A stretch of 64,000 bases of DNA from a virus: IMG/VR virus record IMGVR_UViG_3300045988_135886; one strand, given 5' to 3'. The notes under the pieces were generated by a model. It had not been told where the DNA came from. It worked only from the letters and a program-made list of their open reading frames with translations, and did no database searches. The translations under genes and the position numbers were made by a program. Positions within the stretch are counted from its first letter, which is position 1, and the number at the start of each line of letters is the position of its first letter. Shown here piece after piece: positions 4,313 to 49,179 of the stretch.

Positions 4313-4351
4313 TAGACGCACTAACTATATATGATTTCAAGGAACGTACTC

Positions 4352-4380: not shown

Positions 4381-4420
4381 AGTTACAATAACTGTTTAGG
4401 GTTTAGGGGGCAAAAGCCCC

Positions 4421-4534
4421 CTATGGCTCAAGGTATTCTCTATAGTCACGGTATGAAGCAAAAAGCATATACCGCTGGATAGAGTCCACCCATCCCATGA
4501 ACCCATCTGGAACGTCAAAACCTTTAAGGTTCAT
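4421..4534 (-). CDS. small ORF (37 aa, MNLKGFDVPDGFMGWVDSIQRYMLFASYRDYREYLEP)
   Basis: RBS ggaggtg lies 5 nt before ATG 4534. The stop overlaps hairpin gggggc-aaaa-gccccc (4406-4421). Below the ORF-track size cutoff. Confidence 0.45.
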   Translation of the reverse strand: MNLKGFDVPDGFMGWVDSIQRYMLFASYRDYREYLEP

Positions 4535-4561
4535 GTAATCACCTCCTATTCAGTTATCTCT

Positions 4562-4587
4562 GCCCTTGTTAGCGCAAGGGCTTTTTT
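4562..4587 (+). terminator. rho-independent terminator (plus orientation)
   Basis: 7-bp stem gcccttg/caagggc, 6-nt loop, then tttttt (4582-4587). There is no U-tract in the minus orientation. Confidence 0.65.
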
Positions 4588-4622
4588 GTTACTCAACAAG
4601 TTGTGCTCTTGTTGATGATTGT

Positions 4623-4651
4623 ACTTTACCACAACTGTTTGGTTGTGTCAA
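4623..4651 (-). promoter_or_regulatory. sigma-A-type promoter, leftward (TTGACA-17-TGgTAAAGT)
   Basis: The reverse complement gives ttgaca (4651-4646), a 17-nt spacer, then tggtaaagt. It faces the 4352 promoter. Confidence 0.5.
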
Positions 4652-4762
4652 GTACTTTTTAAAACTTTTTGAAAAAGTTTTATTTACTGTTTTAGGAATT
4701 TTTCTGTGGATTCCAGAACCATTGTTTGAACTTGTCGACCGCCTTTCCTTATCGACACGCTT

Positions 4763-4791
4763 ATCATACTACTGTTACAGTAGGTTGTCAA
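4763..4791 (-). promoter_or_regulatory. sigma-A-type promoter, leftward (TTGACA-17-TATGAT)
   Basis: The reverse complement gives ttgaca (4791-4786), a 17-nt spacer, then tatgat (4768-4763). Confidence 0.5.
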
Positions 4792-4968
4792 TACTTTTTT
4801 TGAAAATATTTTTATTTACACGTTTACGAAAGCCTGCAAACCCGCATAAATACAGGCTTTTTGGCATGAAAAAAAGTTTTTTCGTGAAAAATTACTTCCT
4901 ATTAAAGCGAAAAATAAAGGTCGTCAGGAGCAGGCAGATTGCATACATAGTGTAATACATAGTTGTTA

Positions 4969-5019
4969 GAATATTTAGAATAGATTAAATATTTAGAATA
5001 GTTTAAATATTCAGAATAG
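4969..5019. repeat. three tandem 18-bp direct repeats (core ATATTYAGAATAG)
   Basis: Cores at 4971-4983, 4989-5001 and 5007-5019 with an exact 18-bp period. They lie immediately 3' of the RHH gene and upstream of the leftward promoters. Confidence 0.7.
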
Positions 5020-5037
5020 AGTGTTAATTAGTAAAGT

Positions 5038-5214
5038 TTAATCAATTATATCTGCAATACGTGATTTAATGAAAGTTGCTACTGCAATATTGTTAGAATC
5101 GCAATATTGTTTGAGTTTTTCGTATTCGTCAATACGCAATGCGACACCTATACGTTTTAAGTTCTTTTTATCCCACTCTTTTACATATTTCTTGTTATAT
5201 TCATAATTTGACAT
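5038..5214 (-). CDS. ribbon-helix-helix (CopG/Arc-like) DNA-binding protein (58 aa)
   Basis: Hand-translated: MSNYEYNKKYVKEWDKKNLKRIGVALRIDEYEKLKQYCDSNNIAVATFIKSRIADIID. This fits a beta-strand (KRIGVALR) followed by two helices. RBS aagagg. Below the ORF-track cutoff. Confidence 0.6.
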   Translation of the reverse strand: MSNYEYNKKYVKEWDKKNLKRIGVALRIDEYEKLKQYCDSNNIAVATFIKSRIADIID

Positions 5215-5440
5215 AAATCATAGCCTCTTTTCTATTCAATTTGTTGAGTTGTATATACAATTAAACTTCTAGTAAAAATTATTAGATAATTCAGTGCATA
5301 AGAAAACAATTGTCTGAAACATTGAATTTTAAAGCAAAATTGTATTCACAATCTTAAAAACACTATGGCTCGAGCAGAGAAAACAGACACAATTCAATAC
5401 AATTCGTTATATTGACTGAATACTCTGATTACTTTAGTAC

Positions 5441-5505
5441 TGTAAAATTCTGTAGTGTTATCACTGTAAAATTTTTCAATTGTAAAATTTCAATACTATA
5501 AAATT
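5441..5505. repeat. cluster of four TGTAAAATT-type boxes
   Basis: tgtaaaatt at 5441, 5465 and 5481; tataaaatt at 5497. A fifth copy at 5934-5942 abuts the -35 of the consensus promoter. The 13-mer tgtaaaattctgt is identical at 5441 and 5934. Confidence 0.6.
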
Positions 5506-17263: not shown

Positions 17264-17335
17264 GTCCGGTTAGTCTAGCGGTTAAGACACTGCGCTTTCA
17301 ATGCAGTAACATGGGTTCAATTCCCGTACCGGATG
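17264..17335 (+). tRNA. tRNA-Glu (anticodon UUC)
   Basis: Hand fold: 7-bp acceptor (G1:U72), 4-bp D stem gtct/agac, anticodon stem ctgcg/tgcag with loop cuUUCaa, 4-nt variable loop, T arm atggg-ttcaatt-cccgt. No encoded CCA. Confidence 0.8.
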
Positions 17336-26563: not shown

Positions 26564-27024
26564 ATGAAACTTAATTTTTCAAGTAATGAAGTAAGAAATA
26601 TTTTTGCTGAAAATGATTATGCAGAGTACTCCCAGCTTATGTTTGACACAGCTAAGGGAGAAGAAAAAGTATCTACAAAAGATGCTAATAATAAAATCAG
26701 AGAGATTATGTTCTCTGTACTTGGAGTAGATGAAAACTGCTCAAGAAAAGAACTTAGAAAAGCTATTCGTAGACATAAAATTGATGTATTTGAAATTATC
26801 GAAGAGACAGTAGAGAATCTGCTTGTTTCTGGTTGGGGAGAAAACCCATTCTTCAATGAATTTGTAGAAATCAAATCTATGGCTGACGGTGATACTAATG
26901 AGTTCTATGTACCGGATGAAGTTATTCTGACAGTGTCTGAACTTGCAGGCAATCATCATGACCTGATCAGACAGCGTCTGGCAGAAGGACAGACATTCTC
27001 TGTTAGAACTTCATGGTATGGGAT
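26564..27024 (+). CDS. major capsid protein, exon 1
   Basis: RBS aaaggagg. Ends ...FSVRTSWYG, then 3 codons and a stop. Together with 28265-28883 it makes a 359-aa protein in the capsid position. Confidence 0.65.
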
Positions 27025-28264
27025 TAACTTTTAGTCCCCAAGTACTGTAAAGTGCTTTGTACAAACTAACGCATTGAATTGCTGGAATTTCTTAAAGCTA
27101 ATTACACTACAACGTAAGTATGAAATAAAACTAAGCGTGAATGTTATGAAAATAGAAAGAAGTAATTAGATGATACAAGGTTAAATCCTAAATATCGAGA
27201 GCACTCAACACCTATAACAGGTGTTTTTATTATGCTTAAAATAGAGAATCAGCAGCCAAGATCCGAACAGGATAAGGTTCAACGACTATCTGGAAACAGA
27301 GTAGAACTACAAGCGATTGGTAGTTCGAAGTGGTGCGCACCCTCAATTAGGGTGAAGATATAGTCTAATCTTTAGTGAAAGCTAAAGGGCTTTTAGCCAA
27401 CACAGAGTAGCGTCTGAATTAATATCATTTTTCAAAATAATTATATAAGGAAGTATACATGAAAGAAAAACTATGTGGCATTTATTGCATAGAGAATATA
27501 CTCAACAATAAAAAATATATTGGTATGTCAAGAGATATAAAACGGAGATGGTCTGAACATAAAACAGAATTAAACTCTCATACTCATGTCAATCAGTATT
27601 TACAAGCTGCCTGGGATAAGTACGGCAAAGAAAATTTTAAGTTTTATATTATTGAGTTATGTGATGAAGAGAATCTCAGTGAACAAGAATGTCATTATAT
27701 ACGTTTTTATAAATCATTATCACATGAAAATGGATACAATCTGACTACTGGTGGAGAAAATACTTCTATCGGCAAATCAGTAATATCATTAAAAGATGGG
27801 GCTATCTACAATTATGTAAATGATGCAGCTCAAAATGCCAACGTTCAGTCAGCAACTATGATTTCATGGTGTCGTCAAAAACATAACTATATGTATTTAG
27901 ATGAGTATAACGCTCTTTCTCAAGATGAGAAAGAATATTGGAAAAATTTTGATTGGAAAAACTTTGATCATAAAAAATTAAGTCAAGTACATTCTCGAGA
28001 AAATCTCTCAACAACTACCCTGAAAAAACTAAGTCAAGCGACATCTGGAGATAAAAATCCAAGAGCGCTAAAAGTGTATTGCCCACAATTAAATGAAACA
28101 TTTGATTGTATAAAATATGCATCAGATAAGTATGGCGTTAATAGAGGAAGTATAACTTCTTGTATTAAAGGTAGACTTAAAAGTGCCGGTAAACATCCCG
28201 CTACCGGAGAAAAATTAACATGGGAACTAATTGAAAAATGATATTAAAGTGTTAAATATAAATG
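27025..28264 (+). mobile_element. group I intron (GIY-YIG-encoding) in the major capsid gene
   Basis: P box gaattgctggaa (27076-27087), Q box aatcagcagcc (27247-27257), R box gttcaacgactat (27277-27289), S box gaagatatagtct (27354-27366). Guide tttta-gtccc (27029-27038): gtccc pairs with gggat (27020-27024, U27024:G27034), and tttta pairs with exon 2 taaaa (28265-28269) after G28264. The join is in frame. Confidence 0.8.
27459..28241 (+). CDS. GIY-YIG homing endonuclease (intron-encoded)
   Basis: CGIYCIENILNNKKYIGMSRDIKRRWSEHKT...NGYNLTTGG. RBS aaggaag. Confidence 0.85.
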   Translation: MKEKLCGIYCIENILNNKKYIGMSRDIKRRWSEHKTELNSHTHVNQYLQAAWDKYGKENFKFYIIELCDEENLSEQECHYIRFYKSLSHENGYNLTTGGENTSIGKSVISLKDGAIYNYVNDAAQNANVQSATMISWCRQKHNYMYLDEYNALSQDEKEYWKNFDWKNFDHKKLSQVHSRENLSTTTLKKLSQATSGDKNPRALKVYCPQLNETFDCIKYASDKYGVNRGSITSCIKGRLKSAGKHPATGEKLTWELIEK

Positions 28265-28883
28265 TAAAATTTACGCAGAATATGAGCTGTTTATGGCAGG
28301 TCGTATTGACTGGGCTGGATTCGTACAGAAAATCTATGAAGCTTTTGACAAGAAAATTAATGATATGGTATATGCGGCTGTAATGGCAGCAGGTGAGAAG
28401 GTTCTCCCGTCTACACAGTTTAATAAGACAGGTACACTTTCAGCAGCTACAAAAGATGAGTTTATGACTCTAATCGAAGATGTACAGATGGCTACAGGTG
28501 ATGAAGTAGTTGTTATGGGTACCAAATCTGCTCTTGCAAAACTTTCTGCTATGGAAGATATTACTTGGGTATCTAATGCAATGAAAGATGAAAGACACAC
28601 TACAGGCCGTTTAGGTATGTTTGAAGGTATTCGTCTTGTTGAAATTCCACAGAGATTTGCTAATAATGACACAAGTAAAAAGTTAGTAGATAATACTAAA
28701 CTTCTGATTATGCCAGTAGCTGATAACAAATTTATCAAAATCTACAATGAAGGCGACGCTCAGATTAAAGAAGTATCTGATGGAAATACAAATATGGATA
28801 AAACTATTGAGTATGAATATCAGATTAAAATGGGTGTGGCCACAATTATTGGAAAGCGTTTCGGAGTTTGGACACTTAAATAA
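28265..28883 (+). CDS. major capsid protein, exon 2
   Basis: The frame is open from 28248. The junction reads SWYG-I-KIYAEYELFMAGRIDW. No SD before the listed ATG 28293. A strong hairpin follows. Confidence 0.65.
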
Positions 28884-35537: not shown

Positions 35538-38069
35538 ATGGCTGATTATATAATAAACGTTGGTGTACAAGTCGAGGACAGTGCGCTAAATGCATTAGAA
35601 ACACGAATTAATTCTTTAAAAGAGAAGCACATTAAACTAGGTGTGGAATTAAGTAATACTAAACAGCTAACTAAAAATGCACAGACAGCGGTAAAGACAA
35701 TAAGTAAAGCAACTGCCAAAGCCGCTAAAAATACTCCTGTTATTAAGGGATCTAATCTTGTAGAACAGATGGTAAATCCTGAAGAAGCTTTAAAATCTAT
35801 GGCTAATACAGTCAGTAAGCTGTCAAGGTATCAGGACAAGCTTGATCTAGGAGAAGTAAAACTTTCCGTAAATCAAGGTATTATGGGGGAGCTTGATGGA
35901 CTTTTAGCCAAACTTAATGAAATAAAATCTACAGCTAAAAACATGGGCTCTATTAAGCTTACTGTTGGAGACAATATAAAAACTAAAGACGGTAAAATAG
36001 TTGTTGGAGAAACTACTAGTTCTTCTAATACTGCAAGATCTACAGGCATTACTCTTAGACAAGCTCAAGCTGAAATTAAGAGAAATATGAAGACAATAGG
36101 AACCCTACAGGAACAGTATATAAGTGGGATTATTGATGAAAGTACTTATAAACAGTCAAAGAGAACTATAGGACATAGAAATTCTCAGCTGGCTAGACAG
36201 ATACAAAATCAAGGTACTGCTTCTGATTGGGTTACTTCTGCATCTGACATTCGAGGAGCACAGGCTAAGAATCAAGAAGCATACAAAGCAATGACTCAGA
36301 GTGCTTCAGAATATGACAAAGTTATCACTAATTTGGGTGAGAAACAGAAGACATTCAATAAAATGGCTCAAGTATATAATCCTAACAATGGTAAACCATT
36401 AGATAAAACTCTAGGACAAGGTTATGATGAAAGATTAAAATCTTTCAATGATACATATGAGCAATTAAAAAAATCTCGTGATAGTCTTGCGACTCTTACT
36501 GGAGACGAAAGAGACACTGAGCAAGTACGTTTTGCTGCTCTTCGCTCTGAAGCCAATCGTCAAGCTAGATATCTCGGTAATACTAATCAGTTTTTCTCAC
36601 GTACTCCAAATAGATATAGCCGTTCAGAATATATTGGTACAGATTTAGATCCAGCATCTGATAAGGTCCGTCTTAAGATGGAACAAATGTCAGCAGATCT
36701 GGCAAAAGGAAGCAAATACACAACAGAGTTTAATGCAGCACAAGGTAAAATGTATGCTACTATTGATAGAGGGTCTGGTGTATTTGAAAAATATCAATTA
36801 GCATATAAAAATGGTCCAGGTAATATTGACCAGTCTCTTACTAAAGTTACACAAAGTGTAAAACCTTTATCTAGTTATCTTTCTGAAATGGGACAAAAGT
36901 TCCGTAGTCTTAGCCAGTATCTTGTAAGCAATTTTGGATTCCAAGCATTAACAACGGGTGTCAGATCCGGTGTCGAATCAATAAAAGAATTAGATTCAGC
37001 GATGACTGAACTTAAGAAAACATCAGATGGTACAAAACAAGAATATAGAGACTTTACTACTCAGGCCAGAACTGATGCCAAAGACATTGGTAGTACAACA
37101 ACTCAGATTACTAGTAGTGCTGCTGATTTTTCTCGTCTTGGATATAGCTTAAATGAATCTCAGACTTTAGCTAAAAATACAGGTATTTTAAAAAATGTAT
37201 CAGAATTCGGATCTATAGATGATGCAACAACCGCTATGATTTCCATGATGAAAGCATACGATGTAAAAGTTGATGATTCTATGGATCTCGTTGATAAAAT
37301 GAATCTTATTGGTAACAACTATGCAATTTCTACAGACGGAATTGCCACTGCTTTACAAGATTCAGGTTCAGCATTAGTAGCAGCGGGAAATGACTTCGAT
37401 AAATCAGTTGCTCTCGTTACGGCAGCAAATAGTGTAGTGCAGGATCCATCGAAGGTAGGTGCTGGTCTTAGAACAATTGCATTACGACTTAGAGGCACTT
37501 CTGCTGAAGAATTATCTTCTATGGGTGAAGATACAGAAGGTCTTGTAGAGACCACTTCTAAACTTAATTCAAATATTAAATCTCTTACTGCCGTTAACGG
37601 TAAGGCTGGAGTTTCTATTCTTGATATGAATGGAAACTATAGAGATACTTATGATATTTTAAAAGATATCTCTCAGGTTTGGGATGATATTGGTAAACAA
37701 GATTTGGCAGATGGTCAGAATAGACAGGCTGCTCTGCTTGAAATGATGGCAGGAAAAAATAGAAGTAATATTCTTGCATCCATATTGCAGCATCCTGAAT
37801 TGCTTACAGATGTTTATAATGATTCCGCAAATAATTATCAAAATTCAGCTCAGAACGAGCTTAATACATACCTTGATTCTATCGAAGCAAAAACAACTAA
37901 AATTAAAGAATCTTGGTCACAGTTATGGCAATCAGAAGGTAGTACTAATACTTTTAAAGGATTGCTTGATATTGGCAACGGCGCTGTAGGACTCTTAAAT
38001 GGTTTGGGACTTAATAAATCCTTAGCCGGAGTCGGCGGTATGCTTGTTAGCCATGCTATGAACTGGGGT
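35538..38069 (+). CDS. tail tape measure protein, exon 1 (TP901-type core region)
   Basis: RBS gaggtgag. NLIGNNYAISTDGIATALQDSGSALVAAGNDFDKSVALVTAANSVVQDPSKVGAGLRTIALRL. The listed ORF runs 9 further codons to 38096. Confidence 0.75.
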
Positions 38070-38525
38070 GGGACAAATTATCAGTTGGTCCTTTAGAAAA
38101 CGCCCCATGTAACCTGGTGGTGACACGGAACGATCTCATATGAGAAAGGGGTTACTAAGCAAACAACCGAAACTGTCTTTATTCGAAGGAATAGAGAAAT
38201 GCTTTTAATTTAGCATTCAGGGTGAACCGAAGTATATACTACTCCCCTATTACAGCAATGTAATAGGTATAGTAACAACGTATATATATGGGTGATCTGC
38301 AGCGAAGCTTCTCTCTGAGAAGAACGTTCATCGACTATAATGGGAACTTGGTCTCTGGATCAAGAAGGAATAGTCAGGACTGTTAGGCAGCTTGCGCCGA
38401 ATAAATTAAAGGGTAAATACATCTTACTCTCGTAAGCAATCTTACCTTATGTGCAAAGGTGATGTAAGCACAAATCTTTACTTTATTATTCTTCTATGCT
38501 ATATTTCACATAGGAGGGTAAAACT

Positions 38526-38990
38526 ATGATAATAAATAATTCTATCAGAACTTATGCACCAATTGCTCCGCCATATTTTGACGGATGCTTATTTATGAAT
38601 GCAACTTATGAAATGCCAGAGGAACTGGCCAATTTGTTTACTAAAGGATTAGAATCCTTAAGCAAACATTTATATGAAAAAAATATTGATCCTACTAAAT
38701 TATTTCCTGTAAGTTTAATATTTACAAAAGATGGCAGTTTTTCTGTCACCGAAAATGAAGCAACCACTTATGGAAGATGTATGTCTTTTTTAGTATACTC
38801 CATGGAACGAATAATTACATCTAACAATCAACACATGCAGCTATTCGCATTTATTGAAGAATTAGTGCATTACTATTTTCAAGAAACAAATGAAACAAAA
38901 GTCAAACTAACTACTTTTTCTGTTGTCCAGAAAATATTCCCAGAAATAACTTTCGAGGAGGTAACATCATGGGGAGTAAATTGGAGTTAA
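38526..38990 (+). CDS. intron-cargo hypothetical protein (154 aa)
   Basis: RBS taggaggg. No homing-endonuclease motif. Contains FIEELVHYYFQE. Confidence 0.55.
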   Translation: MIINNSIRTYAPIAPPYFDGCLFMNATYEMPEELANLFTKGLESLSKHLYEKNIDPTKLFPVSLIFTKDGSFSVTENEATTYGRCMSFLVYSMERIITSNNQHMQLFAFIEELVHYYFQETNETKVKLTTFSVVQKIFPEITFEEVTSWGVNWS

Positions 38991-39254
38991 TGTTTATTAG
39001 CAAAGAGAAAAGTCAAATAATTAATTCTCCTATTATAAAAGGTATTACTTGTGATACTTATAAAACAAACTTACAAAATTCATCAAAAGAGCAAAAGACT
39101 ATTCAGTCTCCTGCTCTTTCTTAATATAATACGTACAATCTTCGTTTTCAAAGTACGGACATTCCTCTTCCCTGCACTCTTTATAAAGAGGACATTCTAA
39201 TATTTCCATAATCTTTAAACCTCCATAATATAGTTTTGAAAGTAGGTGTATTTA

Positions 39255-39425
39255 ATGGATAAAAACATTTTTGATAGATTAGTTCCTAAATATCTTCAAA
39301 AGCTAAGCTCAGACGAAATTACAGATTTACTTATAGAAATCAGTGATATTGGCAGAACAAAATTTATCAGTAATTACCCAAAAGAAATTGCTGATCAACT
39401 CCCAGGATATGACTTATACGAATAA
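39255..39425 (+). CDS. intron-cargo small ORF (56 aa, MDKNIFDRLVPKYLQKL...)
   Basis: RBS gtaggtg. Below the ORF-track cutoff. Followed by the hairpin at 39503. Confidence 0.4.
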   Translation: MDKNIFDRLVPKYLQKLSSDEITDLLIEISDIGRTKFISNYPKEIADQLPGYDLYE

Positions 39426-39502
39426 TCTTTTTCGGTTGTATTCAATGCAGTCGAGATTGTTAACTTTCCTATAGTATTGTGCAGAGTGTTAGTGTACAGA
39501 AA

Positions 39503-39526
39503 GGAGAACTGTGGTGGCAGTTCTCC
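39503..39526. terminator. bidirectional hairpin between the convergent cargo blocks
   Basis: 9-bp stem ggagaactg/cagttctcc. T-rich on both sides in the respective orientations. Confidence 0.55.
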
Positions 39527-39604
39527 TTCTATTAAATAAAAATTTTAAAAAGAGAAATACATATGACGAAGTAATTAAATGATAAAGTAGAACATTATTA
39601 GCGA

Positions 39605-39790
39605 TTAGTCAACTTTTTTATTCTTGTATTGTCTTTTCATCATTCCGGTGATAAATTTGACTTTCTCATCAGATAATTCTGGATGATTGCAAATTTGATC
39701 AACAGTATGATTTTTCGAGTTGTAATATAGACCAGCTAATATTACAACAAGTAAAAGACTACTAAGAGATATTATTATTCCAGTATTCAT
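39605..39790 (-). CDS. intron-cargo single-pass membrane protein (61 aa)
   Basis: ATG 39790 with RBS gggggtg. Transmembrane segment IIISLSSLLLVVILAGLYY. Confidence 0.55.
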   Translation of the reverse strand: MNTGIIISLSSLLLVVILAGLYYNSKNHTVDQICNHPELSDEKVKFITGMMKRQYKNKKVD

Positions 39791-40037
39791 ATTCTTCTTT
39801 TCACCCCCTTCCCTTATAAATTTCTTTATTGGGGAAGTGTATTGCCCAGAACGGGCAGATTCTTCGTCCACATCAACAATACAGAATGTATGCCAACACT
39901 TCTGCATGATCAAAAGAAATGATCAAGTATATTATCGTGCAGCGAGTTATAATGCAGCACCTATAACCATAATATACCTAGTAGTATAATAACAATATTC
40001 GACAACTTTGTATATACAGAACATTAGTTTATTATAA

Positions 40038-40547
40038 TCAAAACTTAGCTCCACACTTACAGCACTGATAAGTCTTACCAAGATCACCTGCTCCAAAAAG
40101 ACCAAACAGACCTATCTTCATTGCTTTTCTTGTTCCAGTGATTTTCTTAAGATTTGTGCTGCCGCAGATTGGACACTTAGGCCCAGTAGAGAATTTCTGA
40201 GCATTCTGTTTGGCATACCACTGGTCTGTGTTTTTGTTTCGTTGCTCTACTCCTTCAGGAGATTCCCAGTATTTTCTTTCTGCAGTGGCTGCTTTGGTAA
40301 CATCAGAGTCTAGCTTGCCATAGAAATATTTCTCTCGGAGCATTTCATCAGATTCTTCTATGCTAGGATAATCACCATTATGTGTTTTTTTATACTCTTC
40401 TGTTACTTCTGCATAAGCTTTAGAAAAGTTTATTGTTGTACCTATAAGATTACCCTTTAAACAACTTGAACATAAATCACCTATAGTATTTGAACAACTC
40501 ACTGCTCCACATTTATTACAAAATAAAAGTTCACTCATAATTTTCAC
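40038..40547 (-). CDS. intron-cargo double zinc-ribbon protein (169 aa)
   Basis: RBS aaaggtg. CNKCG...CSSC at the N-terminus and CPICG...CCKCG at the C-terminus, with a G-rich hydrophobic patch IGLFGLFGAG. Confidence 0.6.
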   Translation of the reverse strand: MKIMSELLFCNKCGAVSCSNTIGDLCSSCLKGNLIGTTINFSKAYAEVTEEYKKTHNGDYPSIEESDEMLREKYFYGKLDSDVTKAATAERKYWESPEGVEQRNKNTDQWYAKQNAQKFSTGPKCPICGSTNLKKITGTRKAMKIGLFGLFGAGDLGKTYQCCKCGAKF

Positions 40548-40575
40548 CTTTTATATAGTTTTTAAGATGAACTAT

Positions 40576-40604
40576 ATTATATCACAGTATCTGGTTTTTG
40601 AAAA
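40576..40604 (-). promoter_or_regulatory. leftward promoter for the antisense cargo block, straddling the predicted 3' splice site
   Basis: The reverse complement gives ttttca (40604-40599), 17 nt, then tgatataat (-10 at 40581-40576). About 30 nt upstream of ATG 40547. Confidence 0.5.
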
Positions 40605-43600
40605 GAACGATCAAGGTGGAATTTTACCAGAAACACGTTGGAGTAGAAGAACAAGATTGTACAACGAAGGTCGTGCGGAGGCTTTATCAAATTGGAAAGA
40701 ATATGATAATGACACAAGAGCATTGACCCAGCTTAATAATGCACTTCAGAATAATGGTCAAACTATTACCGATAACGCAGAAAGACAGAAAATTGCTGAT
40801 AAAACTCTAAAAAATGCCAGTGAAAGAGCGAAAGAATATGGTAACCAAATTGTAGCGAATACGAAAACTCTTAGTGACTTTAAGAAAGAGAATGAAGTAG
40901 AGGACCCCAATAAGCAAGTAAAACCTAAATTTACTGATGGATTAAAAAGTTTTGCTTCTTCTGCACTTTCATCAATTGGTAATGCTGTTGTTTCTGCCGG
41001 TACAGCAATGATTGCACAGCAATTAATCTCATGGGGACTTCAAGGTATTGATGCTATTGTTCATTGGAATGATAACATTATTGCTAAAGGAAAAGAAGCA
41101 AAAGAAACAATCCTTGAGCAAAATCAAACTTATAAAGATCAGAAGTCTCAATTAGAAGAGCTCCAAGAACAATATACAAAATACGCTTCAGGTGTCAAAA
41201 TCTCTGGTAATATTATTAAAAATGCCACTCTTTCGGATGAAGATTTTCAAGCGTTTCTCGATACAAGTAATCAAATTGCTAACTTAGCACCTTCTATGAT
41301 TGATGGTTGGGACTCTGAAGGCAATGCTATTCTTAAATTTGGAACGGATACCAAAGAAGCTAATCAGCAAATTTCAGATTATATTCAACTCCAACGTGAC
41401 GTAACACATCTATCCATTAGAGATAATCTACAGGATGAGTATAAGGGTGTAGTTAAAGATGCAGAGAAAACTGGAAAAGAAATTTCTAATAAAAAAGATC
41501 AAAAAAAGGAAGCAGATACTATTACATCTGGATGGACCGCATTAAAAAATGCAACCGAAACAGATGGACCTATTACTTTTACTACAACTGCACCACAAAA
41601 AGAAGTTGAAGAATTACTAGATAAATATAAAGTTACATCGTTAATAACTAGCGATGTAAATGGTGATACTTATACAGTAGATATGTCAGAGCTTTCTGCG
41701 GCAGATAAAAATGCTCTTAAAACGTCTCTTGAATCTAAAGAAGCATTAGCTCAAGGTAATGCCAATTTAATTGAATCTGAAAAACTTGCTCAAGAAGCTG
41801 TACAAGCATCTAAATGGAAAGATTTACTTCCAAGTTTACAAGCATATGTTGAATCATCAAATATGTTTGATAACATGGATTCAGATGTTGCAGAAAGAGC
41901 TAAAAATGGCATTAACACAATGCTATCCAATATTGATATTTCTAAAATGACAGATCAAATAAAAGATGCTGGTGGTATTGATGATTGGATTGATAAGACT
42001 TTAATCGCTCCTATGACATCGGGTTCGAAAGATGTTCAAAAAGCTTGGGCTGACCTTTTTTCATTGGAAGACTCTTATGGTTCCGAAGATTCAAAGATGA
42101 CAGTTGGAGAATGGTCCAAACAGCGAAATGATTATCTTAAAACAATTTCTGAAGGTACTGGTGAAAGTTTTGATAGTCTTGCTAAAAAATTAGGATATAA
42201 AACTGATGAAGGTTGGACTGTTAGAGAACAGATTAACAATGCAGCTGCTCGTCTTTATGGAAAAAACTATGATAGAGATCAAAGAGCGGAAATAGGTAGT
42301 TATTTAAATGGATTGACCAAAGATAATTATGAAATAGCTATTGATTTACTTATTAATGGTGATAAAGCATTTTCTTCTTTAGATGAATTTAAAGAAAAAG
42401 TTAATGAAGCAATAAGCAATGCTAAGAATCAGGCAGATGAAGCTGCTGTTTCTTTAGATTCAATGGAAACGAAAGTATCAACTGCTAAGTCTACTCTTTC
42501 TTCTATGGGAACTATTCTTACAGAGACTACTTCTGCAGGTGGAATTTCTAAAGACAATGTTAAGATCCTTTCTACTGCTTTCAAAGATGTGAAAGATCCT
42601 CGTGGCATTGAGCAAAATGTTAATGATTTATTCACCACTACTTCTGATGGTATCAAACTAAACATAGATGCTTTGAAAACCTTTACGGAATATCAGGCTG
42701 AAGCCACTGATGGAGATTTCGAAAAGGGTATTAAGTTACAGACTAAAGCTATTGCCGAGCAAGCAGAAGAAACAGATAAAGCTTGGAAAGCTATTGCTAA
42801 AGCCGATGACAAGGAAGCAGCTAGAGCAACTTATGACGCAGAAAAAGATAAATTAAAAGATGCTAGAGACGAATATTTATCCTATATGCAATCTCAGTCT
42901 GAATGGCAAGCGACTAAGAAACAGCAACAGGAACTTCTCTCCTATTATTCTCAGTGGCAACGTGCTCAGAGTACGGAGAATGCCGGAGATAAATATAATA
43001 ACATTGTCGCAGGACTAAAGAATGCTAAAGATGCATATGATAAAGGTCTTGTAGGTACAGATGATTTTAAATCATTTGCTGCTCTTATTTCTCCTACAGG
43101 TTCAGATGATAGAGCAAACTTTGCAGAGAATTATGGTAAAGCTGTAAGATACCTCACAGAAGATAAGACAGGTGTTAATAATTTCTTAGCTGATCTTAAA
43201 TCTAAGGGTATGGCATCTTATGATGATGCAAGTAAAAGATGGTCATTTGACATAGATGATATGAGTAAAGCCGCTCGATCAATGGGAATCAGCAAAGAAT
43301 TCATGAGTGCTAACTTCGGTCGTCTTCGTGATTATGGCATTGATAATAACTTTATATCATCTATAGAGGAAGGTATAGACAGAACTCAAGAACTTACTTC
43401 TGCCCTTTCAGATGAACAGAAACGACTCGAAGAACTGAAAAATACAGATAGTACTAACACTACTGCTATTTCTGCTTCTGAGGATAAAGTTAATAAATAT
43501 AAACAGGATTTAAAAGAAACCTATGATAACATGGAGTCTTATTCAGAAGATGCTGCTCAAAATGCTGTTGATAATTTCAATTCATCTGCCATGGGAGCGC

Positions 43601-46600
43601 AAGCCTACGAAGAAGAGATAAAAAGAGTTCAAAAAAATGATCAATTGACAAATGATCAGCGAAATGCAGCTATTAATCAATTAAAAGCTAAACAAGAAGA
43701 GCTAGCTGCTTCTGCCGGTACAACTGTTGAAGCTCTTTTAGGAACAGATGTATCTTCATTAATGGATGGTATCATAACAGATTCTGCTTCTGTTACTACA
43801 GCTCTTGATGGTATCAATAAAGCATATGAAGAACAGAACACAGATGTTACTTCTTTAGTAGACACTCTTGGAAAATATACTTCTGAACAGTTAGAAGGTA
43901 TAGATTTCAATGATGGTAAATGGGACACTGAATTAGGTGATGCAGAAAAAGCTGTTGAATCTTTATGCGAAAAACTCGGTTTAACTAAAGACCAAGCTCG
44001 TTCTGTTATTGAGGCTTTAAAAGAAGCTGGTAAATTAAAAGATTCTGAGAAAAGTAGTGATTCCTCTAAAGAAACTACTAAGGGGTCTTGGGAGAAACCA
44101 CAGACTGCTGAACAGATGGGATTCGGTGATGATCCTGATAGGGCTGCTGAATATACACATTCATTGGAAGCTCTTACTGCTGCCCATAAAGAAAACGATG
44201 CCGCTACTGAAAAGTCATTTGAAACCCTTTCTAAATATAACCGTACACAATTAGAGGGCATCAAATTAAATGATGGTGCTTATAATGTTGAGGGTATGGA
44301 ACAGGCTGAAGATGCCATACAACAGTTAGCAGATAAGACTCAGTTGTCTAAAGATCAGATCCTTACTGCTCTTGAAGGTCTTGGTGTTTTGAAAGTTAAT
44401 GCTCCTACTATGGATGCGACAAAAGGTTTGGAAGATTTAGTTTCTGAGGCTAAAGATGCACAGGACGAATTGTCTGACCTTACTGGTAAAACATACACAT
44501 TTGATTTTGATACTACTGATTTAGATACTGCTCATAAACAGGTAGCTGACCTGCAGGAAGAAGTAAATAAATATAGAGATCGTGATGGTAAATACCATCC
44601 AGAGATTACTGGCGGAGAACAGGTGCAATCAATGTACAAAGCCGCTATTGCTCAAGAACAGAATGCTGAATATAGTTCTTCTGCTATTGGACAGTCTAGC
44701 TTATCATCAGATGTCGTACAAGCTGCTCAAGATTTCATGCAAGCCAAGAATGAAATGGATCAACAAACACAACTCTATCAGAATGGTATGGACAACACCC
44801 TTGATCAGGCTACTCAAGATGCCAATGCAGCTTTTGAAACCTTACAACAGGCTCAGACTGATTCAGGTATCAAATTAGTAGATACAGACAATATTCAAAC
44901 TGCCGAAGATCAGTTATTACAATTATCCAATGAAGATATTGGTGATAAAATCAAAATAGATGTTGATACAACTTCTGTTGATGACGCTCTTGCCGATGTA
45001 CAAGCACTTGCAGCAGACGGAAAAATGGGAAGTATTGACTTAGATTTTAATGTTAATACGATGTCTATTGATGATATAGATTCTAAGATAGAAGAATTGA
45101 CAAATCAACAGAAAGTATTAACTATTCTAGGAGATGTTGAGGGAGCAGATAAAGTACAAGCTCTTATTGATGCCTTGCAGCAAGTACATGACAAACAAGT
45201 TGAAGTTGTTGCACAGACCCAAGGTGCAGATTTAGTAGACCAACTTCAGTCACGAATAGCCGAATTGCAAGATAAGAATGTATCTATTGATGCAATTGTT
45301 CAAGATGATAAAGTTCAAAGTCTTATAAGTGAAATTGCTGCTCTCCCACCAGAAGTCCAAATAGCTATTGGTGTAAATGAAAATAATGTAGGAAATGCAG
45401 AAGCTATCAAAGCTCAGATTGAATCCGATCCTGCAAGTATTACTGTAAATTATGTTAAAGGTGAAGAACCTGAAAAAGCGGATGACATTGAAGGAAAAGC
45501 TAATTTTACTCTTGGAGAACATCCTACAAAAGCTCCAGACATTTCAGGTACAGCTAATTATAGTCTTGGTAGTTATCCTAAAACTGCTCCAACTATTTTT
45601 GGTACTGCTGTTTATACTAAAAAGATTCAAGCTTCTGGCACAATGACATCAGTTGCTCACGCTTCTGGAACAGCTTATAACGTTCTTAATATGAGACCTC
45701 TCTCTTCTGCTCATGCAAAAGGTGATGTAGCACTTAAACATGATGAGCAAGCACTTATTAATGAGGTATGCATCAACGGTCATTCTGAATCCATAGTGCG
45801 TGATGGTGTATGGTCGCTTATTCCTGGTGGTGCTCATATTGAGAATTTGAAAAAAGGTGACATCATCTTTTCAGCTACTCAAACAGAGGATTTATTAAAA
45901 CATGGTGCTACACATGGTCATGCTAGAGCATATGCACAAGGCACTGCTTCCAGTGTAACCCTTGCTCCTGCCTATGCAGACGGTACATCAGAATTAGATG
46001 ATACAATTAAAAAAGTAAGTACTCAAGCTAAAGACTGGATAGAAACTGCTCTTGATCGTTTAGAGAGAATCGTTGAAAAGTATCAAGATATCGCTGAAAG
46101 CGATTATAGTAATTATAAGTCTTCTGAGAAGAATTATGATAAAGCACTTAAAAATCTGAATAAACAATTACAGACACAAAAAGATTCCAGAGCAAAATAC
46201 GTAGCTAAAGCAAATGAAGTTGCTTCTGCTGTTGGTTTATCTGACGAACTGAAAAAGAAAGTCCAGAATGGTACAATCAATATTGAAAGTTTATCCGAAG
46301 ATGATAAGAAACGTGTTGACGCATATCAGGAATGGTATGAAAAAATCTTGGATTGTGACAAAGCGATTCGTGAACTCACTAAGTCACAGAAAGATTTAGC
46401 TAAAGCAAAGGTCGAACGTGTTATTGAAGCTTATGACACCGTCATAGGTAAACGTGAGAATAAAGCTGACTATTACAAAGCTAAACAGGAATTGAGAATC
46501 TCACAAGGGTATAATCAGAAACCTGGTTCTAAATATGAAAAATACATGAAAAAGGAACTCTATTATACCAATGAACAGAAACGTCTTACTGATAAAGAAA

Positions 46601-49179
46601 TAAAAGAATATAAAGGTAGGATGAAAGAATATCTTAAGGTAAATGGACATAAAACTGTCGATCCAGAATACCAAAAGATGAAGAAACAGCTTTATAGTCT
46701 CCAGACAGAGGCTGTTAAGTTAGAAAATGAAGCTGCTGAATTAGTTCAGGCTTTACAAGATAATCGTGAACAGATAAAACAATGGGCTGTTGACCGCTGG
46801 GATCGTGCAGGTTCCAAGCAGGATGCAGTAATTGATTACGCAAAAGCAAATGATAATCCTGAGTATCAGATTAACGAAAAGATTTATCAGGAGCGCATTA
46901 AATCTAATGCGAGACAGATCAATGCACTTCAAAAGCTTCGTGCAGAAAAAGCCGAATACTATGATACTCATTTTTCTTCTATGAATAATGAAGAAGCCCA
47001 GAAATATCTTAATTCTATAGCACAGATTGACGAACAAATTTTAAAAATCGGCAGTGATATAGAAAATCTGAAAAATGAAATCATGGAACTTCGCTGGAAA
47101 CCATTTGATGATGCACAAGATAAACTATCAAATGTTATCACTGAATATCAGACTATGCAAAAACTTCTCGGTGACGCTGAAAGTTTTTACAATGATGATG
47201 GTTCATTTACTACAAATGGATTAACTAACATTTTATTAACTCAAGAATCTATAGATGCGACAAAACAGAAGATTGCTAACTATAGGGAAGGTCTTAATAA
47301 GCTTGAAGAACAATATAAAAATGGTTGTTACAGCTTAGACGAATACAATGAGAAAAGCAAACAACTTCTTGATGGTATTCAACAAGAATCTACTGCTCTT
47401 TCTGAACTGAAACAGAATATGCTTGATATGTATGAGACTCAAATTAAGAAAGAGAATGATTTACTTCAGGAAAATATTGATAAGCGTAAAGACGCTCTTT
47501 CTGCTAAAGAGAAATATTACGATTATGACAAAACTTTAAAAAAGAAGTCTAAAGATATTAATACTCTTAAATCCCAGATAGCTGCCCTTGAAGGAACCAG
47601 TAATGCTGCCGCCAAAGCTCGTCTTGAGAAATTACGTGCGGAACTTGCAGATGCCGAAGATGATATGGCAGATACCATGCATCAACACGAAGTCGATATG
47701 AAAAATACCGGCTATGAGAATTTCTCTAATGAAGCGAATAAAGCTCTTGATAATACACTTGATGCAGTAAAGAAAAATTCTTCGTTTCAGGAAGCTATTA
47801 TTAATGGAATGCTTACCAATGTAACCACTAATTATGATAACACATATAAACATTTACATACTGTGATGGATCAGTATGGTGTTAAGGTGTCTGGCACATT
47901 TGATACTATGATAGGTAAGTCTGCTGATTTCAATACAAGTTTAATTCAACAGATAAAAGCATTAGAAACCATTTCTAATATGAAAGTTACTCTTCCATAC
48001 GGAACAAGCAATGGACAAGGTGGTTCTACAACTGGTAATAATACATATACCGGTGCTGAGAATGGTATTCACAATACATTTAATAGCAATAAAGACTCCA
48101 CTGGTGCTGGAAATGAAACTCCAGGTACAGTTAATAACAAGAAATACAGTTTAAAACTAAACGCTACTGATATTTATTTAACTTATGACCATATTAAACA
48201 GCAGCTTAAAGCAACATGGTCACCAAGCAAACCGGAACACTCTGATATTGAGTGGAAAAGTTCTGATGAATCTATTGCAAAAGTTTCTTCTGATGGTACA
48301 GTTCGTGGTGTGTCTTCAGGTCTTAATAAGAACGGTTTAATGGCGCGTGATGAGTCTAAAACAAGAAAATGTATCATTACTGCTATTGGCGGTGGTGGTC
48401 TTGCTAAAGCTACTTGTACCGTTCATGTAATGCCAAATGCTCATTACGAAGCAATTAAATCCTATGCAGCTAATGCAGGGATTGATGTTACTTCTGGAGA
48501 TAACTTAAGAGCCGCCATGCAATATGCATATCAAAATGGGGCTAATCATAGCTACCAGTCTGATGTCGCAGTTGAAGGATTCAAAAAGGCATATCTGAAG
48601 GATTGGACAAGCTCTCTACCTAATCGTCCAGATGGAGCAACTGATATTCCATCTGGTGTTAGTCAGTTAGTAGGTTACTTCAATTCCAAAGGTAAAAAAG
48701 TCGGACCAAAAGAAATGCAACAGCTTGCAGATATTCTTGGAATTAGTACTCCAGGTGTTAAAAAATATGATTCATGGGGTTCTGCTTTAAAAAATCAGAT
48801 ACTTCAAAAGTATAAATCATATGGTTTTGCTACTGGTGGAATAATAAATAAGCTAATACCTGCTGATATGAGTACTCTTTTAGGTAAAGCTATTATTAGT
48901 AATGGAGATCAGGGATTCATTGGTGCAAAAGTTGGCGAATCAGTAATGACCGAGGAATTTACTCGTCTGCTCAAACCTTCTATTGCTGCAATGAATGACT
49001 TTACCAATATGTTTAACCCGGTTACTCCTACTGCCACAAATAATGATTATACTATCAACAACGAAGTGAACATTAATGTAGCAAATATGAGTAATGATTT
49101 AGACATCCAAGATGTCGCAAACAAAGTTTCTACAATTATTAATAAAAATATGACTAGAGACTGGAGAAAGCTTAGATGA
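40594..49179 (+). CDS. tail tape measure protein, exon 2 (2861 aa)
   Basis: Long coiled-coil protein directly before Dit and Tal. The listed ATG 40567 has no SD. Has hydrophobic segments, a C-terminal Big_2-like Ig domain and repeated A[HY]AxGT motifs. Confidence 0.7.
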   Translation, partial: VFEKNDQGGILPETRWSRRTRLYNEGRAEALSNWKEYDNDTRALTQLNNALQNNGQTITDNAERQKIADKTLKNASERAKEYGNQIVANTKTLSDFKKENEVEDPNKQVKPKFTDGLKSFASSALSSIGNAVVSAGTAMIAQQLISWGLQGIDAIVHWNDNIIAKGKEAKETILEQNQTYKDQKSQLEELQEQYTKYASGVKISGNIIKNATLSDEDFQAFLDTSNQIANLAPSMIDGWDSEGNAILKFGTDTKEANQQISDYIQLQRDVTHLSIRDNLQDEYKGVVKDAEKTGKEISNKKDQKKEADTITSGWTALKNATETDGPITFTTTAPQKEVEELLDKYKVTSLITSDVNGDTYTVDMSELSAADKNALKTSLESKEALAQGNANLIESEKLAQEAVQASKWKDLLPSLQAYVESSNMFDNMDSDVAERAKNGINTMLSNIDISKMTDQIKDAGGIDDWIDKTLIAPMTSGSKDVQKAWADLFSLEDSYGSEDSKMTVGEWSKQRNDYLKTISEGTGESFDSLAKKLGYKTDEGWTVREQINNAAARLYGKNYDRDQRAEIGSYLNGLTKDNYEIAIDLLINGDKAFSSLDEFKEKVNEAISNAKNQADEAAVSLDSMETKVSTAKSTLSSMGTILTETTSAGGISKDNVKILSTAFKDVKDPRGIEQNVNDLFTTTSDGIKLNIDALKTFTEYQAEATDGDFEKGIKLQTKAIAEQAEETDKAWKAIAKADDKEAARATYDAEKDKLKDARDEYLSYMQSQSEWQATKKQQQELLSYYSQWQRAQSTENAGDKYNNIVAGLKNAKDAYDKGLVGTDDFKSFAALISPTGSDDRANFAENYGKAVRYLTEDKTGVNNFLADLKSKGMASYDDASKRWSFDIDDMSKAARSMGISKEFMSANFGRLRDYGIDNNFISSIEEGIDRTQELTSALSDEQKRLEELKNTDSTNTTAISASEDKVNKYKQDLKETYDNMESYSEDAAQNAVDNFNSSAMGAQAYEEEIKRVQKNDQLTNDQRNAAINQLKAKQEELAASAGTTVEALLGTDVSSLMDGIITDSASVTTALDGINKAYEEQNTDVTSLVDTLGKYTSEQLEGIDFNDGKWDTELGDAEKAVESLCEKLGLTKDQARSVIEALKEAGKLKDSEKSSDSSKETTKGSWEKPQTAEQMGFGDDPDRAAEYTHSLEALTAAHKENDAATEKSFETLSKYNRTQLEGIKLNDGAYNVEGMEQAEDAIQQLADKTQLSKDQILTALEGLGVLKVNAPTMDATKGLEDLVSEAKDAQDELSDLTGKTYTFDFDTTDLDTAHKQVADLQEEVNKYRDRDGKYHPEITGGEQVQSMYKAAIAQEQNAEYSSSAIGQSSLSSDVVQAAQDFMQAKNEMDQQTQLYQNGMDNTLDQATQDANAAFETLQQAQTDSGIKLVDTDNIQTAEDQLLQLSNEDIGDKIKIDVDTTSVDDALADVQALAADGKMGSIDLDFNVNTMSIDDIDSKIEELTNQQKVLTILGDVEGADKVQALIDALQQVHDKQVEVVAQTQGADLVDQLQSRIAELQDKNVSIDAIVQDDKVQSLISEIAALPPEVQIAIGVNENNVGNAEAIKAQIESDPASITVNYVKGEEPEKADDIEGKANFTLGEHPTKAPDISGTANYSLGSYPKTAPTIFGTAVYTKKIQASGTMTSVAHASGTAYNVLNMRPLSSAHAKGDVALKHDEQALINEVCINGHSESIVRDGVWSLIPGGAHIENLKKGDIIFSATQTEDLLKHGATHGHARAYAQGTASSVTLAPAYADGTSELDDTIKKVSTQAKDWIETALDRLERIVEKYQDIAESDYSNYKSSEKNYDKALKNLNKQLQTQKDSRAKYVAKANEVASAVGLSDELKKKVQNGTINIESLSEDDKKRVDAYQEWYEKILDCDKAIRELTKSQKDLAKAKVERVIEAYDTVIGKRENKADYYKAKQELRISQGYNQKPGSKYEKYMKKELYYTNEQKRLTDKEIKEYKGRMKEYLKVNGHKTVDPEYQKMKKQLYSLQTEAVKLENEAAELVQALQDNREQIKQWAVDRWDRAGSKQDAVIDYAKANDNPEYQINEKIYQERIKSNARQINALQKLRAEKAEYYDTHFSSMNNEEAQKYLNSIAQIDEQILKIGSDIENLKNEIMELRWKPFDDAQDKLSNVITEYQTMQKLLGDAESFYNDDGSFTTNGLTNILLTQESIDATKQKIANYREGLNKLEEQYKNGCYSLDEYNEKSKQLLDGIQQESTALSELKQNMLDMYETQIKKENDLLQENIDKRKDALSAKEKYYDYDKTLKKKSKDINTLKSQIAALEGTSNAAAKARLEKLRAELADAEDDMADTMHQHEVDMKNTGYENFSNEANKALDNTLDAVKKNSSFQEAIINGMLTNVTTNYDNTYKHLHTVMDQYGVKVSGTFDTMIGKSADFNTSLIQQIKALETISNMKVTLPYGTSNGQGGSTTGNNTYTGAENGIHNTFNSNKDSTGAGNETPGTVNNKKYSLKLNATDIYLTYDHIKQQLKATWSPSKPEHSDIEWKSSDESIAKVSSDGTVRGVSSGLNKNGLMARDESKTRKCIITAIGGGGLAKATCTVHVMPNAHYEAIKSYAANAGIDVTSGDNLRAAMQYAYQNGANHSYQSDVAVEGFKKAYLKDWTSSLPNRPDGATDIPSGVSQLVGYFNSKGKKVGPKEMQQLADILGISTPGVKKYDSWGSALKNQILQKYKSYGFATGGIINKLIPADMSTLLGKAIISNGDQGFIGAKVGESVMTEEFTRLLKPSIAAMNDFTNMFNPVTPTATNNDYTINNEVNINVANMSNDLDIQDVANKVSTIINKNMTRDWRKLR

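Follow-up and report, generated by a model that had tools for sequence, protein, structure and literature searches.

The subject of this study is a split tape measure protein (TMP) gene in a 64,000-nt stretch of gut phage DNA (IMG/VR record IMGVR_UViG_3300045988_135886), referred to below as the window. The interruption of the gene is probably a group I-type intron that carries an exchangeable island of accessory genes and not a homing endonuclease, a reading held here with moderate confidence. The split state of the gene, the covariation of the exon guide, selection on five open reading frames (ORFs) within the interruption, the mosaicism of this cargo, the conservation of promoter motifs and the absence of endonuclease signatures were computed in this work; splicing in vivo, activity of the predicted promoters and any role of the cargo are what we infer from the sequence.

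Two plus-strand ORFs of 852 aa (35538-38096) and 2,870 aa (40567-49179) border a gap of about 2.5 kb. In the IMG/VR contigs L024 and L025 (L-numbers are the labels of the compared loci and contigs), an uninterrupted ORF of 4,938 aa with 38-44% identity contains both exon homologies in a single frame and at the expected spacing. Since this homologue is continuous across both exon regions, the window holds one TMP gene that is interrupted, which agrees with the first-pass annotation, where about 2.1 kb of sequence had been placed within an intron of a single TMP gene. The PF10145 (PhageMin_Tail) domain was detected on the counterpart of the 852-aa product in relatives with identical architecture. 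Exon 2 has no Shine-Dalgarno sequence or other ribosome-binding site (RBS) and no conserved start, and ATG 40567 is missing from most relatives. When the exons are joined at the predicted splice sites, an ORF of 3,705 aa with zero stops is obtained, which reads ...AMNWG/VFEKNDQGG across the junction (the slash marks the splice junction here and below).

The splice sites were predicted by an unbiased search of all in-frame pairs of a 5' site ending in U and a 3' site ending in G, in which the U.G wobble was required and contiguous P1 and P10 helices were scored. A single best solution was found, with the 5' site after U38069, the terminal G at 40593 and the guide G at 38102. The predicted insertion follows a Gly GGT codon (phase 0), and with the 5' splice site between 38069 and 38070, the 852-aa ORF would draw its final 8 codons and its stop from the intron. 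P1 would be formed by 6 bp between exon-1 UGGGGU (38064-38069) and GCCCCA (38102-38107), with U69.G102 as the wobble, and P10 by 6 bp between exon-2 GUUUUU (40594-40599) and GAAAAC (38096-38101), directly beside the P1 part of the guide. The exon-1 end of the spliced junction is ...ATGAACTGGGGT and exon 2 starts with GTTTTTGAAAAGAAC...; the intron-less junction DNA reads ...AACTGGGGT followed directly by GTTTTTGAA....

Among the in-frame choices, only the pair 38069/40593 provides the terminal G in both of the 3' variants, and GGTTTT at the intron/exon-2 junction is invariant in relatives, the 5 nt upstream of it varying freely. The 3' site near 40587 given by the first-pass annotation was misplaced: G40587 is replaced by C in the commoner (L003-type) 3' variant, and the alternative G in L003-type variants needs another 5' site despite an identical P1. 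It was therefore rejected and the 3' junction was moved to the predicted position between 40593 and 40594. A model in which exon 1 runs to the stop codon and the GGGG run 38148-38151 serves as guide was also rejected, as G38151 pairs with C38113 and a compensatory change is present in L023.

The same search conducted in diverged relatives revealed homologous phase-0 junctions after Gly GGT with different pairing sequences. P1 and P10 comprised 7 + 6 bp in L028 (10/500 shuffles; junction ...KGDG/IFKNL), 6 + 5 bp in L045 (25/500 shuffles; ...GKAVG/SLQK), 7 + 8 bp in L101 (0/200 shuffles) and 6 + 4 bp in L112 (46/200 shuffles; ...IKNAG/ILKTF). The predicted P1 is CGAUGGU/GCCAUCG in L028 and GUAGGU/GCCUAU in L045. 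P1 and P10, as predicted, covary across the window and these four lineages. In L095 (TMP-sense coordinates 4214-5480), a 21-nt complementarity was noticed between the exon-2 start and the 5' region of the intervening sequence, which far exceeds a normal P10.

Other insertions were observed in TMP exon 1 of relatives. L023 contains a canonical group I intron (L023:9145-9502, 61.9 bits) at a position equivalent to 37427 of the window, L020, L021, L022, L026 and L027 have an insertion of ~1.96 kb at window-equivalent 37616/37801, and an insertion in L028 (L028:8712-9998) holds an ORF of 307 aa with multiple zinc fingers. The TMP gene is an intron hot spot in this phage group.

The predicted ribozyme core is located at the 5' end of the intron. 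Among the close relatives, a set of 22 distinct IMG/VR alleles, the core (38070-38474) is 94-99% identical, except for L023 with 86%, and in all 22 it is conserved up to 38474. Comparison of the window with L023 revealed one compensatory double change in each of the two helices of the P2-like region (C38113-G38151 to U-A and C38137-G38142 to U-A). The segment 38266-38338 (P4'-P6-P7) shares 85% identity with an unannotated intervening sequence within PhiPA3's DNA-polymerase gene, which is itself recognised as a group I intron by Rfam with 71.7 bits. An nhmmer profile of the core detected PhiPA3 at 9e-11, L028 at 6e-6 and the TMP-sense strand of the prophage locus L083 at 2e-6. The PhiPA3 (Pseudomonas phage) match to 38266-38338 lies at L048:2499-2573, and in HPP-Temi the identity is 93% over 57 nt; the closeness of the core across very different phages and hosts is surprising. 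The label "group I-type" is used because exon-recognition features were found, whereas P3 was not convincing and the L028 and L045 cores gave no Rfam match.

The 3' tail of the intron forms a putative hairpin with a constant loop. In the alignment, 88.7% of its cells are paired, against 27-63% in slid controls, compensatory changes are present in 3 pairs and the covariation score was equalled by 3/500 shuffles. A docking partner for the loop in the core (AUCUUA at 38421 and 38439) was not supported, as it was present in 13% of shuffles. In seven distant loci (L078, L079, L083, L090, L091, L098 and L108), 1-3 hairpins with covarying stems were seen between the TMP 3' splice site and the zinc-ribbon promoter described below, 100-130 nt upstream of the zinc-ribbon gene and with a constant 7-nt loop TGTGGAG (CUCCACA on the TMP-sense strand). 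They may be the counterpart of the hairpin with the UUAAGAU loop in the window family. In L028 (11764-11782), a hairpin loop doubles as the RBS of the zinc-ribbon gene on the other strand.

Between the core and the 3' tail (38475-40552), five cargo ORFs were identified, two on the plus and three on the minus strand (Table 1), so the cargo indeed reads in both orientations, as had been claimed in the first-pass annotation. Both forward ORFs and both reverse ORFs given there are present in the ORF list, together with the CxxC pairs of ORF169 and the hydrophobic segment of ORF61. For ORF169, the true start is most likely ATG 40538, giving a predicted product of 166 aa, because homologues of 165-168 aa begin with M-x-E-L-L-F-C and GTG 40547 lies inside an AAGGTG Shine-Dalgarno sequence. 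A third reverse gene, ORF36, had been missed; it is intact in 22/22 relatives and is predicted there by gene callers. All five ORFs are under purifying selection relative to alleles of relatives, with ratios of nonsynonymous to synonymous polymorphism (pN/pS) of 0.07-0.25. The CxxC pairs at both ends of ORF169 are conserved in 34 homologues, and ORF61 has a single strongly hydrophobic segment (residues 3-21, mean Kyte-Doolittle 2.48).

Table 1. Coordinates of the split TMP gene, the predicted intron and its cargo in the window.
Feature	Coordinates	Strand	Description
TMP exon 1	35538-38069	+	844 codons, end ...AMNWG; 5' splice site from P1/P10 search
Group I-type intron (predicted)	38070-40593	+	2,524 nt; core at 5' end, cargo, short 3' tail with terminal G40593
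Internal guide sequence (predicted)	38096-38107	+	pairs with both exon ends
P2-like helix	38109-38155	+	38109-38115/38149-38155 around hairpin 38134-38145; compensatory changes
Conserved catalytic-core block	38169-38474	+	P4-P6, J6/7-P7 GACUAU, P8 hairpin, J8/7-P7' AAUAGUC, P9 and distal hairpins, the last at 38450-38472
ORF154	38526-38990	+	154 aa, strong AGGAGG RBS, usual endonuclease slot, optional in relatives, pN/pS 0.07
Intrinsic-terminator-like hairpin after ORF36	39085-39120	-	16-pair stem, T-rich tail, -21.1 kcal/mol, z -5.2
ORF36	39099-39209	-	36 aa, Cys-rich, GGAGG RBS, pN/pS 0.08
ORF56	39255-39425	+	56 aa, start GTG 39246 in the ORF list; some variants only; pN/pS 0.25
Hairpin between convergent ORF56 and ORF61	39500-39528	.	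-19.5 and -19.8 kcal/mol, z -4.7 and -5.3 (two strands)
ORF61	39605-39790	-	61 aa, single-pass membrane protein, pN/pS 0.09
ORF169	40038-40547	-	169 aa; N-terminal zinc ribbon, helical middle, C-terminal zinc ribbon; pN/pS 0.13
3'-terminal intron hairpin	40553-40577	+	9 bp, 40553-40561/40569-40577, loop UUAAGAU constant; covariation
Predicted leftward sigma-70/SigA-type promoter	40576-40604	-	-35 TTTTCA 40604-40599, 17-nt spacer, TGaTATAAT 40584-40576
TMP exon 2	40594-49179	+	2,861 codons, start VFEKNDQGG; long ORF, P10 pairing

No homing endonuclease could be recognised among the cargo proteins. Searches with Pfam, PHROGs, PADLOC and NCBIfam detected no HNH, GIY-YIG or LAGLIDADG domain in the cargo ORFs of the window and no endonuclease family in the tested ORFs of relatives, and no homing endonuclease family (LAGLIDADG, GIY-YIG, HNH, His-Cys box, PD-(D/E)xK, EDxHD) was matched by the cargo at E<=1 in Pfam. 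As a positive control, the GIY-YIG gene of the window's other intron was detected at 9e-12. Foldseek searches with the cargo models gave no match at E<0.4. For ORF169, the AlphaFold2 model (mean predicted local distance difference test, pLDDT, 80) had no match below E 0.6 in PDB, its sole significant match in BFVD was an uncharacterised family member, and the family sequence profile against PDB gave ribosomal zinc-ribbon noise only. For ORF154, neither a Pfam match nor a significant fold match was found, and its AlphaFold model (pLDDT 66) had no match below E 0.45 in PDB; the I-DmoI rows obtained with this low-pLDDT model (TM-score 0.21) were treated as noise. ORF154 matches phrog_33355 (function not assigned) at 1.5e-8 and belongs to a small family of 11 clusters, whereas ORF56 had no family match in Pfam or PHROGs. 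The absence of an endonuclease signature from the island, noted before from the letters alone, thus stands after domain, family and structure searches, with ORF169 and ORF154 as the modelled proteins.

The other intron of the window (27015-27387) was recognised by the Rfam model RF00028 with 72 bits. It lies within 26564-28883 as a canonical group I intron followed by the GIY-YIG ORF (27459-28241, Pfam 9e-12), and the two split an apparent single structural gene, a capsid gene (26564-27034 and 28293-28883), in contrast to the TMP intron. A tRNA gene (17264-17335, Rfam 63.6 bits) is located upstream of the structural module.

Among the 22 close relatives, the gap has 13 different lengths, from 1,681 to 3,816 nt. 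Cargo blocks are swapped at sharp boundaries and the flanks stay 97-99% identical. ORF154 is missing from about half of the alleles, with a breakpoint jump from 38474 to 39084/39107, and the region 39237-40137 is either swapped for a gene of a 183-198-aa HEPN protein or of a 225-aa protein with a HEITH motif, or extended by an ORF of 305 aa. The HEPN protein, which is absent from the window cargo, matches Pfam PF18736 (pEK499_p136) with 60.2 bits against a cut-off of 26.6 and contains the Rx4H motif RNAVCH. The pEK499_p136 family has been linked to restriction and Pgl systems (PMC3710099). In L041-L043, a HEPN domain is also precomputed on the gene that neighbours the zinc-ribbon gene.

Only three parts are constant in the 22 relatives, namely the core, ORF36 with its terminator and the antisense zinc-ribbon gene with its upstream promoter region. 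The shortest variant is a single leftward operon of three genes (zinc-ribbon gene, HEPN gene and the 36-aa gene). The C-terminal module of the zinc-ribbon protein itself comes in two interchangeable forms, ...GAGDLGKTYQC.CGAKF and ...SKKINKSFKC.CGYTW, and a recombination breakpoint was located within its gene (window 40137-40162). In L016 and L021, the HEPN ORFs end in ...GKTYQCCKCGAKF, a copy of the last 12 residues of the zinc-ribbon protein, and this duplicated tail is a recombination scar of cassette insertion. A 26-mer from the core occurs as a single copy per contig, in the TMP gene only, in the same 25 contigs. Morons are promoter-gene-terminator units inserted between conserved late phage genes. 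The idea that the intron serves as a moron carrier, raised in the first-pass annotation, has gained strong comparative support from the mosaic cargo of the 22 relatives, which includes a HEPN RNase. A promoter and a terminator of the island's own were found around the genes at the level of consensus matches.

The zinc-ribbon gene was followed beyond the close relatives. ORF169 has 146 close homologues, all of them unannotated, and in every context examined the gene was located between TMP exons 1 and 2, divergent from exon 2. In L045 and L028, whose intron sequences differ from that of the window, a minus-strand zinc-ribbon gene again abuts exon 2, and hhalign related these genes to ORF169 both over the full length (85%, 6e-6) and in the C-terminal domain (97%, 3e-11). 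A profile search with the C-terminal zinc ribbon of ~50 aa showed that this domain is widespread (3,306 representatives). When the family profile was used against species-representative genomes, 43 loci were found in Lachnospiraceae, Oscillospiraceae and other Clostridia, and at least 14 of them have an exon-2-like sequence shortly upstream of the gene, on the other strand, and/or an exon-1-like sequence beyond the gene. At the distant loci, the TMP frames stop and resume at a homologous G-rich segment. Judged from these comparisons, the antisense zinc-ribbon gene appears to be the constant companion of the intron site across distant Clostridia phages, the other genes being interchangeable. 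Relatives were found in bacterial chromosomes and in metagenome-assembled genomes (MAGs); the chromosomal location suggests prophage states. In an Oscillospiraceae MAG, a skipping-rope RNA (RF02924, 81 bits) was noted on the minus strand beside the zinc-ribbon gene (L086:5488-5566).

The putative promoter of the leftward genes is the top promoter-like site in the region 37900-40900 according to the consensus scan, with 10/12 matches plus the TG. Its -35 corresponds to nt +6 to +11 of exon 2, the first base being shared with P10, and its -10 lies 12-17 nt upstream of the terminal G; the earlier placement of the -35 in exon 2 and of the -10 in the intron therefore holds under the revised 3' site too. 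The transcript it would produce is another matter. The predicted start at ~40569, about 7 nt downstream of the -10, is already 24 nt inside the intron, and because the RNA heads away from there, it would be antisense to the intron interior and would not run across the 3' splice site, as had been claimed. Only promoter DNA overlaps the 3' junction in the window, and antisense control of splicing there is speculation.

The TGnTATAAT motif is kept in all variants of the window family, the -35 being either TTTTCA or TTGGCG. An analogous site, aTGACA-17-TGTTATAAT, was read from the sequence across the splice site of L045, and in L028 the extended -10 is in exon 2. An extended -10 was found 26-49 nt upstream of the zinc-ribbon start codon in 9/11 other loci (7/9 distant ones plus L041 and L044). 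The leftward promoter appears, on sequence grounds, to be conserved in function and not in sequence. A further promoter-like site on the minus strand (40014-39986, TATACA-17-TATTAT with TG) may serve ORF61.

Two hairpins could end transcription within the island. The one between ORF56 and ORF61 had been reported at 39503-39526 and was recovered as a stable structure on both strands with slightly wider limits (Table 1); its stem is invariant and its loop variable in relatives. It is plausibly a weak bidirectional terminator, which was not listed by the terminator scan because its U-tracts are short. The terminator-like hairpin after ORF36 had escaped the earlier reading.

According to the interpretation preferred here, the late TMP transcript would cross the intron and the 5' core (the first ~400 nt) would fold. 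The guide would bring the exon ends together via P1 and the adjacent P10, and the 3' hairpin and the terminal G would close the intron, the splicing product being the 3,705-aa TMP. The insertion of ~2.1 kb would be tolerated as a peripheral extension, as in the IStrons of Firmicutes and Fusobacteria (CdISt1, BcISt1), in which a 5' group I core and a 3' insertion sequence are spliced out as one unit (PMC4227781), and it would form a recombination hot spot for moron-like accessory genes. The leftward unit would begin with the SigA-type promoter straddling the 3' splice site and continue through the zinc-ribbon gene and the interchangeable genes (for the small membrane protein in the window and for a HEPN RNase, a HExxH-motif protein or a 305-aa protein in relatives) to ORF36 and its terminator. 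As its promoter is of the housekeeping type, this unit could be expressed independently of late transcription. The optional sense genes ORF154 and ORF56 would probably be translated from the pre-mRNA or the excised intron. The content of the cargo (a membrane protein, and a HEPN RNase in relatives) points to superinfection exclusion, defence or counter-defence, which would be the likeliest class of role. It is possible that promoter occupancy or convergent transcription interferes with TMP.

Several observations weigh against this interpretation. The P1/P10 score of the window was equalled by 48/500 shuffles and therefore convinces only together with those of the other lineages. Core membership was set at RF00028 with at least 50 bits over P3-P9; a narrow scan of the window aligned the J6/7-P7 and J8/7-P7' motifs in a weak match of 15.2 bits (E 0.18), and a wider permissive scan of the 3.1-kb region gave no Rfam group I match. 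No such match was obtained for the L028 and L045 cores in permissive scans or for 16 distant loci at the gathering threshold, and P3 was not convincingly assigned by hand. Rightward transcription would have to pass the two stable hairpins, and exon 2 could be expressed less as a result. Promoter-like sites are no more numerous in the region than in shuffles (15 vs. 13.4). Finally, no intron-less close allele that would confirm the junction turned up in the protein, core 26-mer and junction-pattern searches: the protein search across the junction found no TMP protein spanning it in close alleles, and the DNA pattern of the spliced junction gave chance matches only in viral and metagenome contigs. 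The TMP query had zero matches in the species-representative genomes, and no close relatives were found among annotated phages, where only the core similarity to PhiPA3 and a weak match to the TMP of a Clostridioides phage were seen.

Among the alternatives, the zinc-ribbon protein could be the intron's own selfish or maintenance factor, that is a novel homing or targeting protein or a splicing cofactor, and the remaining genes could be hitchhikers. This would explain why the gene accompanies the intron site everywhere: no other protein-coding gene was seen in all of the examined alleles with the intron, even though the TMPs are just 22-51% identical. The family also has conserved charged residues (H56, E68, K78, D80, R91, E98 and E101), and one C-terminal variant resembles the zinc ribbon of the IS1595 transposase, with 21.6 bits, below the cut-off of 25.4. 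However, no nuclease domain or fold was found in the protein, its C-terminal domain is present in thousands of unrelated small proteins, and its antisense orientation and housekeeping-type promoter are unlike the arrangement of known phage intron endonucleases. A normal intron with a GIY-YIG gene is moreover present in the same genome. On this evidence, we regard an intron-serving role of the protein as unlikely.

The promoter might instead serve mainly to regulate TMP, by occupancy, by convergent transcription or by an RNA duplex gating splicing or late exon 2, with the proteins being secondary. In the window and L045 it overlaps both the 3' splice site and the P10 region, and its position is conserved despite the turnover of its sequence; both observations fit such a role, as does L028, where antisense RNA starting from the -10 in exon 2 would cross the splice site. 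In the window, however, the predicted transcript leaves the splice site uncovered, and at the distant loci the 3' splice-site motif, read by eye, is found further upstream than the promoter, which is well within the intron. The SigA-type promoter is probably active at a different time from late TMP transcription. The zinc-ribbon ORF, in addition, is under purifying selection and its protein sequence is conserved, which indicates that the protein matters. A primarily regulatory promoter is therefore considered quite improbable.

IStrons are the closest known system, and a decayed IStron-like chimera, in which the remnant of a transposable element (the zinc-ribbon DNA-binding protein) was later overwritten by other genes, has to be weighed too. 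As in IStrons, the core lies at the 5' end and the cargo before the 3' splice site, the architecture being a 5' group I core followed by ~2 kb of non-endonuclease genes in Firmicutes hosts (PMC4227781); the weak IS1595 resemblance points in the same direction. Unlike IStrons, the island carries no TnpA, TnpB or DDE domain, and its constant gene is antisense with its own predicted promoter, within cargo that is mosaic among relatives. The element is a single copy, as judged from the core 26-mer found once per genome, and occupies one conserved site in a phage structural gene that is homologous across lineages, as is typical for homing introns rather than transposons. Such an origin is very doubtful. 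Equally hard to credit is the view that the region is not spliced as one unit but consists of separate TMP genes, or of halves joined by trans-splicing, with an intergenic island: although the two hairpins could halt rightward transcription and the core is below the Rfam threshold, exon 2 has neither RBS nor conserved start, the guide pairs with both exon ends in five lineages, the homologue is uninterrupted and the ~40 nt of intron downstream of the antisense gene are too little for the 3' half in trans-splicing.

The accessory-island intron was also compared with other known systems. Phage introns in structural genes are ordinary, and phage group I introns are usually regarded as carriers of homing endonucleases. 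In the T4 nrdD/sunY intron, the ORF is located downstream of the core. The TMP intron resembles phage introns with a 3' endonuclease ORF, such as the other intron of the window, in that the core comes first and the ORF next within an essential gene, and ORF154, a sense-strand gene with a strong RBS, occupies the corresponding slot and is optional. It differs from them in the lack of an endonuclease signature, in the number of genes (five, of which three are antisense) and in its internal promoter(s) and terminators. With morons it shares autonomous promoter-bearing units, variable presence, a location in the tail-gene region and defence-like content (HEPN RNase, small membrane protein). Unlike morons, the island is placed inside the intron of an essential gene, so its harmlessness depends on RNA splicing, and it has a constant antisense gene as its anchor. 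Group I introns of organelles can also carry a non-endonuclease gene useful to the host, as is the case for rps3 in fungal mitochondrial rnl introns, whereas here the intron belongs to a bacterial virus, it holds several genes, some of them antisense, and its cassettes are exchanged rapidly. Introns can take up protein-coding and RNA genes, and non-endonuclease cargo of group I introns is already known from IStrons and organellar introns (PMC4227781). In the literature searched, no published precedent was found for phage introns with morons, antisense ORFs or defence cargo, which is not proof of absence. What appears to be new, and was not found described in that literature, is the combination of a mosaic promoter-bearing island in a phage intron, a constant antisense gene and conservation across Clostridia phages.

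A more far-reaching possibility, entertained here only tentatively, is that the intron and the zinc-ribbon gene are old partners in the phages and prophages of Clostridia. The protein would then represent a new class of intron-associated factors, which may act in mobility, in splicing or in the gating of the late TMP transcript; the intron would be a protected docking site for defence or counter-defence cassettes, and the junction promoter would couple cargo expression to TMP production.

At the 3' end of the predicted intron, a few nucleotides are used jointly by the promoter, by the P10 pairing and by the opening codons of exon 2. Gene callers now fragment such TMPs and append intron-encoded residues to exon 1. 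If both splicing and leftward transcription hold true, introns can be safe harbours for moron-like or defence-related phage cargo, a widespread uncharacterised zinc-ribbon family becomes defined as intron-associated, and a tractable system is at hand for the question of how a ribozyme can accommodate a 2-kb insertion of DNA that is transcribed convergently.

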